Of a DNA stretch of 64,000 bases, positions 48,296-49,880 are shown piece after piece. Position 1 is the first letter of the stretch. Each line of letters opens with the position of its first letter. The stretch is taken from IMG/VR virus record IMGVR_UViG_3300042481_000164, positions 32,001-96,000 of that record, one strand, 5' to 3'. The notes beneath the pieces were generated by a model. It worked only from the letters and a program-made list of their open reading frames with translations, ran no database searches and was not told the origin of the DNA. The DNA comes from a virus. Taxonomy: Duplodnaviria; Caudoviricetes. The translations under genes and the position numbers were made by a program.

Positions 48296-48898
48296 GGGAT
48301 TTAATTTTAGATTATTATTTAGATTATAGATTTTACAAAGGTTTCCGGAAGCATTTACTGTCTTAAAGCAGATAACACTAATAACAATAATAGTAATAGT
48401 AGTAATACTGGTTAATATATGAGTATACACACTATATATGTTACTTACAGGGAAATGCTTAATCATGATTTAGCTATATTATTAAGATATACAGCTAGTT
48501 ATACTATTCTGAACATAGTGCTTAGGTTGAGTTAGTAGTGAGAGTTTGACACCTTTCACCACTTTCACACACACTTTCACAAGAATTATAAAAATATAAC
48601 TACTTGATTATCAGATACTGAGTCTCATTGTTACACACGGTGGAGACAAAGTATTTATACTTTACTGAGTAGAAATAATAATATTATTACACAGGATAAA
48701 TACTATTAAGTAGTGAGTAGTACACGCTACTGTGTACATTTGTAGAGCTATTAATGCTGACAAAACATAATTTCATTATGCAGACACTACTATTTATTTA
48801 TTATAAAGCTTGATAACAAGATTTATATTAAATAAATGGCTGATTGAAAGAGGGAAAACAAAAAATACTAATGACCTAAGTCATTAGTATCTCTGTTA

Positions 48899-49312
48899 CT
48901 ACATCCCGTCTAAGTTATCATCAACAGGTTCATCTACAAACTGTACTGCTACAGTTCTCTTAGCTGCTACAGCTGTCCCATTGCTTAACTTGTCTGCAAG
49001 TCTATCTGCAAATTTATCTGCTAAAACAGATGAAGCAGAAGCAACAGCATTAAGCCTTGCAATGTCCTTGTTAAATGTTCCAGTATCCAATGTGAAGTTT
49101 CCGTCACGCTTTTGAACCAGGTTCATTTCATCCTCCATTCCAATGTAGTTTGTAATGAACTGTATCTCTCCATTAGGCCCTAATGAAGGATACTGTTTGA
49201 AGTTAGGAGAATTTTTGTAATCCTCTAACTCTTGTGTTGTTCCAACTACATTGTAGATGTGGAATACGTTACCCTTTTTAGATCTTGGGCTTGCTACATA
49301 AATTGCTTTCAT
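48899..49312 (-). CDS. Early hypothetical protein
   Basis: 137 aa ORF flanked by repeated motifs. Confidence 0.75.
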   Translation of the reverse strand: MKAIYVASPRSKKGNVFHIYNVVGTTQELEDYKNSPNFKQYPSLGPNGEIQFITNYIGMEDEMNLVQKRDGNFTLDTGTFNKDIARLNAVASASSVLADKFADRLADKLSNGTAVAAKRTVAVQFVDEPVDDNLDGM

Positions 49313-49404
49313 GTTGTTTGGTTTTTGTTTGTTAATAATTATTTTATTATAAATTAAGGGCTGATAAGAAGAGGGAAAAGAAAAAACTATAGAAGCCTAA
49401 GCTT

Positions 49405-49602
49405 CTATAGTCTGAATTCTACTGTTGGGTAGAATCCATACTGTTGACAGAGCAACAACTGTTGTGTTACTCTTGCATCTGACATCATAGATATGTCTTC
49501 TTCTTTATATGTGCATCTACTGCACTCATTTACTATTGTATCTTTTGCATCTGCAAATACTAAATGCATTGCTGTTTTGTAAACTATTAATATTGTTTCC
49601 AT
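49405..49602 (-). CDS. Early hypothetical protein
   Basis: 65 aa ORF flanked by repeated motifs. Confidence 0.6.
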   Translation of the reverse strand: METILIVYKTAMHLVFADAKDTIVNECSRCTYKEEDISMMSDARVTQQLLLCQQYGFYPTVEFRL

Positions 49603-49880
49603 AATGTTTAAATTTTAATTCAAGTTAAAGGCTGATAAAAGAAAAGAAAAAGTCCTAAGACTTTTTCAGTGTGAGTTAATAACTCTGCTATGTATACTTA
49701 TCATATAGATATATAATATAAGATCATTAGTTCACTTCAATATTATATTCTTAATTTAAATGAAAGGTTGATTGAGAGAGGGAGAAAAAATTACAAACCA
49801 AAGTATCTGTGATGAGTATTTTTCTACAGATATAAAATCTTTTATTTTAATTATATATCAAATACATGGCTGACCAAGCA

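Follow-up and report, generated by a model that had tools for sequence, protein, structure and literature searches.

The window analyzed here is a 64,000-nucleotide stretch of a lake crAss-like phage, corresponding to bases 32001–96000 of a 120,766-bp IMG/VR phage record. At the head of its leftward early gene block, the minus strand carries an array of five units with the core TCARCC (plus-strand GGYTGA at 48838, 49359, 49630, 49766, and 49868; units A to E, respectively). Here, we propose that the array is made up of self-contained early transcription cassettes, in which a start signal would be followed by a small gene or a short non-coding unit and then by a hairpin with a U-run acting as the terminator. 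The terminator tail and the start signal would together form a repeated segment of ~45 nucleotides, and recombination between copies of this segment would insert, delete, and swap cassettes among relatives, as with the composite terminator/promoter motifs known as PeSL in T4-type phages. Most likely, the start signal is an early promoter read by the injected crAss-type virion RNA polymerase (RNAP). As a whole, this scheme appears probable, though far from certain, and its polymerase step is the one that we infer.

A pattern scan of IMG/VR yielded 17 related contigs, including two complete genomes of ~122 kb, and 12 metagenome contigs were added by a search with a 137-residue protein encoded in the array; at least two of these are duplicates of IMG/VR contigs. 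The signal array is present in ~27 related contigs, where each genome has 2–6 copies clustered on a single strand; in the complete genomes, it is limited to one cluster each. In all relatives, the 2–6 sense-strand units lie just downstream of a common C-rich island and the strand switch. The original prediction, drawn from the window, had described CTAA-loop hairpins beside GGCTGA and offered two readings: promoter hairpins of the N4 type on the template strand, or terminators, with TCAGCC serving as promoter for early-gene cassettes that can be swapped. It is the latter that finds support in the comparative data.

Hairpins at the ends of the units

Units A, B, and C have a common order of elements: a perfect hairpin, a U-run passing into a CT tract (TTTTCCCTCTTyywA), the core TCAGCC, and an AT-rich block. 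Units D (TCAACC) and E (TCAGCC) consist of the core and the AT-rich block and lack a CTTAGG hairpin upstream; the CT tract is present in unit D, and a C-rich island precedes unit E instead. As predicted, the first leftward genes beside the strand switch are separated by the units, and the plus strand serves as the template. The prediction was also right that the copies at 48838 and 49868 share TATATyAAATAmATGGCTGA. GGCTGA itself is found at 48838, 49359, 49630, and 49868, but the fifth copy listed in the prediction, at 49766, reads GGTTGA.

The three perfect hairpins with a C-CTAA-G loop are also present, and their first arms lie at 48865–48875 (11 bp), 49386–49396 (11 bp), and 49646–49654 (9 bp). 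In the RNA, 9–11 Watson–Crick pairs carry a UUAG loop closed by C-G (CTAA on the plus strand). Hairpin A (48844–48894, minus strand; −18.4 kcal/mol) pairs 48865–48875 with 48880–48890, reaches 15 pairs with wobble, and continues into a U-run/CT tract at 48844–48864; it immediately follows the stop codon of the 137-residue gene. Hairpin B (49365–49413, minus strand; −18.6 kcal/mol) pairs 49386–49396 with 49401–49411, reaches 13 pairs with wobble, and overlaps the stop codon of a 65-residue gene; its U-run/CT tract (49365–49385) reads TTTTTTCTTTTCCCTCTTCTTA. Hairpin C (49636–49667, minus strand; −10.4 kcal/mol) pairs 49646–49654 with 49659–49667 and has a U-rich tail at 49636–49645. The stop codons that are abutted or overlapped are those at 48899 and 49405.

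Judging from their form and from their behavior among the relatives, the hairpins are best interpreted as intrinsic terminators that end the unit before them, not as promoter hairpins. They have the form of intrinsic terminators, namely, a stable stem-loop located where a gene ends (3′) and continuing directly into a U-run in the strand that is transcribed. A terminator scan called nine sites against 2.4 expected, and all three array hairpins were called, on the minus strand only. The relatives contain 33 distinct hairpins of 9–17 bp with a U-run after each, and G-U wobble lengthens the stems by 67 pairs on the sense strand versus 5 on the template strand. In the nine orthologues of the hairpin after the 137-residue gene, 13 pairs are kept, five of them via compensatory double changes, so that structure rather than sequence is conserved. 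The hairpins also stay with the gene that precedes them: one hairpin type, together with the end of its upstream gene, is joined to four different downstream signal/gene types, and the signal of the 137-residue gene is preceded by at least 12 different upstream hairpin types. The predicted fixed spacing holds for units A and B, in which the loop is 38 nucleotides from GGCTGA, but not for unit C (25 nucleotides) or for the relatives, in which the stem end is 10–28 nucleotides from the core. Finally, cores occur without such a hairpin, both in units D and E and in the first two TCAACC copies of the relatives. All of these features argue for terminators.

The reading put forward first, in which the repeats extrude on the template (plus) strand as N4-like promoter hairpins of the virion RNAP with GGCTGA as a fixed-distance partner, can be given very little credence. 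It draws on the behavior of gp66 of phage phi14:2, which was active in vitro only on single-stranded or denatured DNA (10.1101/2020.03.07.982082), and on the repeats being perfect and AT-rich and thus cruciform-prone. The occurrence of the C-CTAA-G loop on seven unrelated stem tops and nowhere else in the genome hints at loop-specific recognition. There is also a general likeness to the N4 promoters P1–P3, which are few, clustered at the start of the early region, and belong to a phage that injects a giant RNAP (PMC13492108), and in both cases the polymerase type is inactive in vitro on plain duplex DNA. However, the N4 promoters are template-strand hairpins with stems of 5–7 bp, whose 3-nucleotide loop has a purine at its center (−11G), and the enzyme that reads them is single-subunit and T7-like (PMC13492108). 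The stems here have 9–17 bp, the loops are mostly of 4 nucleotides (CTAA on the template), half of the hairpins of the relatives have other loops, and some units have no hairpin at all. Where hairpins are present, they act terminator-like for the upstream unit: the U-run is limited to the RNA-sense strand and the wobble extension nearly so, the hairpin goes with the upstream gene, and its distance from the core varies. The enzyme is different as well. Based on its alignment, the virion RNAP of this phage is of the crAss type, with two barrels and a DFDID motif, and has no relationship to the N4 enzyme.

The loop sequence deserves separate mention. CTTAGG is unique to these three among 117 genome hairpins of at least 7 bp. 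In the relatives, this loop, C-UUAG-G in RNA form, closes just 16 of the 32 distinct hairpins. A thermodynamic explanation of its frequency was rejected; nearest-neighbor (Turner) energies place CUUAGG at rank 52 of 256, with a gain of merely 0.6 kcal/mol over the median tetraloop.

The proposed start signal and its probable reader

GGCTGA alone is at chance level (14 copies versus 14.6 expected). The extended motif is enriched, with six matches versus 0.28 expected, and 0 of 100 shuffles reached six. Four of the six matches are in the array stretch, two of them overlapping at unit D; unit C is unmatched. In the whole 120.8-kb genome, the motif together with its purine tract is confined to the array cluster.

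In the sense direction, the signal consists of a CT tract (TTTnCCCTC), TCAACC (TCAGCC in the lineage of the window), 12 nucleotides, and a TAAAAT-like box. When the relatives are aligned on the core, conservation extends from about −22 to +24. The conserved positions are TTT at −15 to −13, CC at −11/−10, a pyrimidine run to −2, A at −1, TCAACC at 0–5, and then nTTnAyTT, followed by a T-R-A-A/T-A-T hexamer at +18 or sometimes +17. The hexamer is TAAAAT in the commonest classes. All of the 63 distinct cluster sites are on the sense strand, and most have a TAnnnT-like hexamer at +18 or +17. On the minus strand of the window, unit A (48820–48843) combines the core at 48838–48843 with the AT-rich box TAAATC at 48820–48825. 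Unit B (49341–49364; core 49359–49364, TAAAAT 49341–49346) belongs to the most conserved signal class among the relatives. Unit C (49612–49635; core 49630–49635, TAAAAT 49612–49617) has a truncated CT tract without CCCTC. Unit D (49748–49790), which has no CTTAGG hairpin, comprises the CT tract TTTTTTCTCCCTCTCTCAA at 49772–49790, the core at 49766–49771, and the box TAAGAA at 49748–49753. Unit E (49850–49873), with no upstream terminator hairpin, comprises the core at 49868–49873, a 12-nucleotide spacer, and TATAAT at 49850–49855.

A scan for the composite signal in 185,579 prokaryote genomes (GTDB) gave nine isolated hits, which look like chance matches and lack both a hairpin and an AT box. 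When the core positions were freed, a scan of IMG/VR gave three unrelated single hits and no lineage with a different core, and a BLAST search of the region against GenBank phages gave no match.

Two placements of the start site fit these sequences. If the AT box acts as a −10 element, transcription would start ~30 nucleotides after the first core base, immediately past the box; conservation ends just before that point. Several units with an ATG at +29 to +33 would then yield leaderless or near-leaderless mRNAs. Alternatively, the start may be at the purine closing the pyrimidine tract, in which case the AT-rich block would be a conserved leader.

The core could in principle be a DNA-level signal, that is, a set of replication-origin iterons or a packaging/terminus recognition array beside the G-rich island. 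Several same-strand copies do lie within ~1 kb beside this island, at the strand switch where the GC skew turns. However, the copies are 100–530 nucleotides apart with no helical phasing, every copy is located exactly between a terminator and a gene start, and the copy number tracks the cassette number. This placement and number fit promoters, not iterons; the origin, iteron, or packaging-site reading was rejected on the placement, and we give it next to no credence.

It is also very improbable that the region is covered by one long early transcript, in which the hairpin, the CU tract, and UCAACC would be RNA processing sites or 3′-end stabilizers, like the early RNase III sites of T7. The elements are exactly between genes, the hairpins show compensatory changes, and leaky terminators would let the CU-rich tract and the core be transcribed. 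Nevertheless, the hairpins have the full intrinsic-terminator form with the U-run directly after the stem. The first TCAACC comes directly after the C-rich island, upstream of everything, where no upstream transcript is expected. The signal also stands ahead of units without an open reading frame (ORF), and conservation reaches the AT box at a fixed spacing, which is promoter-like.

As to the reader of the proposed promoter, the window encodes a crAss-type virion RNAP, as originally predicted. Its 3606-residue ORF, whose C-terminal part fills 1–8292 (plus strand), matches PDB 6VR4 (phi14:2 gp66; E = 1.9e-16) with the catalytic motifs aligned; the catalytic GGDFDIDK is at window position ~4276. 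Minus-strand genes extend from ~49600 down to 14700, with small orphan genes first and then the helicase, the DNA polymerase, and other replication genes, and plus-strand genes begin at 50045. The array therefore sits at the head of the leftward early/replication block, adjoining the strand switch. This is the location expected for promoters of a crAss-type virion RNAP in a phage that encodes the enzyme.

A different box is found elsewhere in the genome. TAnnTTTG, the −7 element of Bacteroidota promoters, occurs within 60 nucleotides upstream of 13 genes, compared with 3 and 6 for control words. Two tandem copies (TATATTTG; 50040–50055, plus strand) lie 12–20 nucleotides before the first gene of the divergent rightward late operon. 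These boxes are predicted host-type (Bacteroidota) promoters of the late block. TAnnTTTG is absent from all five units, and no copy precedes the first 5 kb of leftward genes. Searches of the genome for sigma-70 regions 2 and 4 gave no match, and their controls responded. Because the units lack TAnnTTTG, no sigma factor was detected, and a crAss-type virion RNAP is encoded, this polymerase is the likeliest reader of the start signal. Three to four separate units of the window and of two relatives, contigs L019 and L052, share the A-to-G core change, and the other relatives all have TCAACC; this pattern fits a phage-encoded reader.

The most serious competitor, which we nonetheless judge unlikely, keeps the same cassettes and assigns the signal to the host RNAP, with sigma-A alone or with an activator that is delivered in the virion or made very early. 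T4 middle promoters have a MotA box at −30, which replaces the −35 element, and a −10 hexamer, and they need MotA and AsiA made from earlier host-type promoters. An activator of this kind would bind TCAACC at about −30, 12 nucleotides upstream of the −10-like TAAAAT, as in the sigma appropriation of the MotA type. TCAACC-N12-TAnAAT has the box-to-hexamer spacing of T4 middle promoters, and conservation stops right past the hexamer, as expected with a start site just downstream. Moreover, intrinsic terminators are a feature of the host RNAP, and the promoters of PeSL, the closest analogue, are host promoters (PMC2839356). On the other side, neither the −7 box used before other operons of this genome nor a canonical −33/−35 element at proper spacing is found in the units; the −33 TTG/−7 TAnnTTTG combination of Bacteroidota sigma-A promoters is missing from all five. 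The near-absence of the composite signal from prokaryote genomes and the failure to detect a sigma factor in the phage genome also speak against a host reader. Pfam searches of the genome for MotA and AsiA gave no matches, although their controls likewise gave no response. Finally, the same core is found in all copies, the very first included, which leaves no ordinary host promoter for making the activator first.

Several observations weigh against the virion RNAP as the reader or against parts of the cassette scheme. The A-to-G change could have spread via gene conversion between units. Activator-dependent host promoters of the T4 MotA type likewise have a box 12 nucleotides ahead of a TAnAAT-like hexamer. 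The AT box varies (TAAAAT, TAAATC, TGATAT, and TGTAAT) and may be a mere AT-rich leader. The over-representation of the C-UUAG-G loop is not accounted for by a plain terminator role; common descent of the cassettes, recombination microhomology, or protein recognition may account for it. Last, no common motif was reported upstream of the virion RNAP transcripts of phi14:2 (10.1101/2020.03.07.982082), and our scan of its early region (1–9000) gave no comparable cassette array or repeated motif. The signal would thus be clade-specific at best.

In phi14:2, the early genes of the replicative module are transcribed by the rifampicin-resistant virion RNAP and later genes by the host RNAP (Drobysheva et al., 10.1101/2020.03.07.982082). 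This phage and that of the window have homologous virion RNAPs, an early block with the replicative module, long non-coding stretches that are highly transcribed or conserved among the first early units, and host-type promoters before later genes. They differ in that the clade of the window has the sharply conserved 45-nucleotide signal. In a variant of the proposed scheme, the TCAACC signal would be the promoter of the virion RNAP, an enzyme that requires single-stranded template, and neighboring DNA features would help to open the duplex. Supercoil-driven opening would then be provided by the 20-nucleotide homopurine tract of the template, by the perfect inverted repeat, which is cruciform-prone and has a conserved loop, and, at the first copy, by the template-strand island of G-runs. 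The terminators would be dual, the RNA form ending the upstream unit and the DNA form presenting the template of the next, and this would account for the retention of a single loop sequence on seven unrelated stems. We regard this variant as rather improbable.

A further parallel to the proposed reader is found in Thermus phage P23-45. Its tape-measure-fused virion RNAP has AT-rich pre-early promoters, whose starts were determined by ONT-cappable-seq with ChIP-seq support (10.1101/2022.12.01.518664). As in the window, the genes expressed first are preceded by a conserved phage-specific motif, which has been attributed to an injected two-barrel RNAP and is limited to relatives encoding that enzyme. 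By contrast, neither the motif nor the phage family is related to those of the window, and P23-45 has no cassette shuffling coupled to terminators. In the literature, the giant virion RNAP of crAss-like phages is still without a defined promoter, and the sole experimental study is the one that reports no common motif (10.1101/2020.03.07.982082). The start signal is a concrete candidate because it is short, sharply conserved, and strand-locked. It also comes with natural variants: the core is TCAACC or TCAGCC, and the CCCTC tract and the upstream hairpin are each present in some units and absent from others.

Cassette exchange among relatives

Judging from its sequence form, the array of this crAss-like phage clade is PeSL-like, with terminator/promoter cassettes. 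Relative to the window, contig L052 lacks 49380–49639 (260 bp; minus strand), and the flanks are 99.7% (289 nucleotides) and 97.5% (600 nucleotides) identical in a global alignment. The missing segment is exactly one whole cassette, comprising signal C, the 65-residue gene, and hairpin B, and both breakpoints are in repeated T/CT tracts. Contig L019 has the same shorter arrangement, and unit D is identical in these two contigs and the window. Between the first gene and the 137-residue gene, the other relatives have zero, one, or different cassettes, some of them without an ORF. The 137-residue gene is the sole cassette that is constant across all relatives.

PeSL of T4-type phages combine a terminator stem-loop with an early promoter directly behind it. 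Copies of the motif surround small orphan genes and serve as the recombination site for modular shuffling, through which single cassettes are gained, lost, or swapped between close relatives (Arbiol et al. 2010, PMC2839356; Comeau et al. 2014, PMC4122927). The array shares this organization. A stem-loop of terminator form lies immediately upstream of a promoter-like motif in a shared intergenic spacer, and the motif flanks small orphan genes and marks the breakpoints of cassette gain, loss, and replacement. Some features differ. PeSL promoters match the host sigma-70 consensus, whereas neither TTG-N19-TAnnTTTG nor TTGACA-N17-TATAAT is found in the units, and the promoter part here is a clade-specific signal unlike the host-type box used elsewhere in the genome. 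Instead of many hyperplastic regions, there is one cluster, located at the head of the early block. PeSL occur in myoviruses without a virion RNAP, whereas this crAss-like phage injects one. PeSL-style cassette shuffling at composite terminator/promoter motifs would thus also take place outside T4-type phages, and it may provide crAss-like phages with a mechanism for the quick turnover of early host-takeover genes.

Early genes, non-coding units, and genome setting

The C-rich island (49874–49960, minus strand; G-runs on the template plus strand) lies immediately before the first TCAGCC, where the leftward and rightward gene blocks diverge. It is kept in every relative covering the region, where it ends in CCCCTACCCCCC, followed by 8 nucleotides and TCAACC. 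Just downstream of the core of unit E lies an imperfect 15-bp palindrome, ATGTAT-TTG-ATATAT (49853–49867, minus strand). In the relatives, TCAACC is followed by ACATAT-nnn-ATATGT, with one compensatory change compared with the window. This palindrome looks like an operator on the first candidate promoter. Upstream of the second core, the relatives have a 9-bp hairpin, CATTTTTTC-TAGT-GAAAAAATG.

The two genes of the array have no family assignment. The 65-residue gene (49405–49602, minus strand) lies within the cassette missing from the closest relatives, and its ATG is 33 nucleotides from the first core base of unit C. The 137-residue gene (48899–49312, minus strand), whose ATG is 52 nucleotides from the first core base of unit B, has homologues with 62–99% identity in the 17 IMG/VR contigs and the 12 metagenome contigs. 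The protein has an acidic C-terminal tail ending in DNLDxM. PHROG and Pfam searches with the early proteins gave nothing usable, and the 137-residue protein had no match in either database.

Two stretches of the array contain no substantial gene. Between signal D and hairpin C, the longest ORF of the short unit at 49668–49747 (minus strand) has eight codons, and this unit is a candidate early RNA of ~105 nucleotides. Comparable ORF-less units of 130–190 nucleotides lie between signals in the relatives (L010:3020–3152-type and L006:5548–5733-type, in oriented coordinates). Such units of ~105–190 nucleotides are candidate early small RNAs that may be swapped like gene cassettes. Signal A heads a conserved ORF-less stretch of ~450 nucleotides (48384–48837, minus strand; annotated as 48467–48819). 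In an alignment of 10 genomes, its columns are on average 80% identical, and long blocks, CAGTAGCGTGTA and GTCTCCACCGTGTGTA among them, are invariant. Consensus folding gave a weak structure (−11 kcal/mol, two covarying pairs), and Rfam gave no match at E up to 1 in 47400–50100. This stretch is a candidate early non-coding transcript and recalls the highly transcribed early intergenic regions of phi14:2.

The ends of the phage record repeat each other with one mismatch (genome positions 1–200 versus 120567–120766), so that the "linear" record is a circular assembly. The genome has a GC content of 30%. A Shine–Dalgarno-like word precedes 2 of its 136 genes, and the context of the start codons across the whole genome is rich in A (65–69% at −13 to −11 and 62% at −3). 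These translation signals are Bacteroidota-like and point to a host in the Bacteroidota. TAnnTTTG boxes are also found before the genes at 52321, 52786, 54516, 59354, and others. The ORF of the virion RNAP (16–8292) has an additional circularly permuted YpsA/SLOG domain (Pfam PF12694, E = 1.9e-8), and the next ORF, of 1977 residues (8295–14228), contains a LysM domain.

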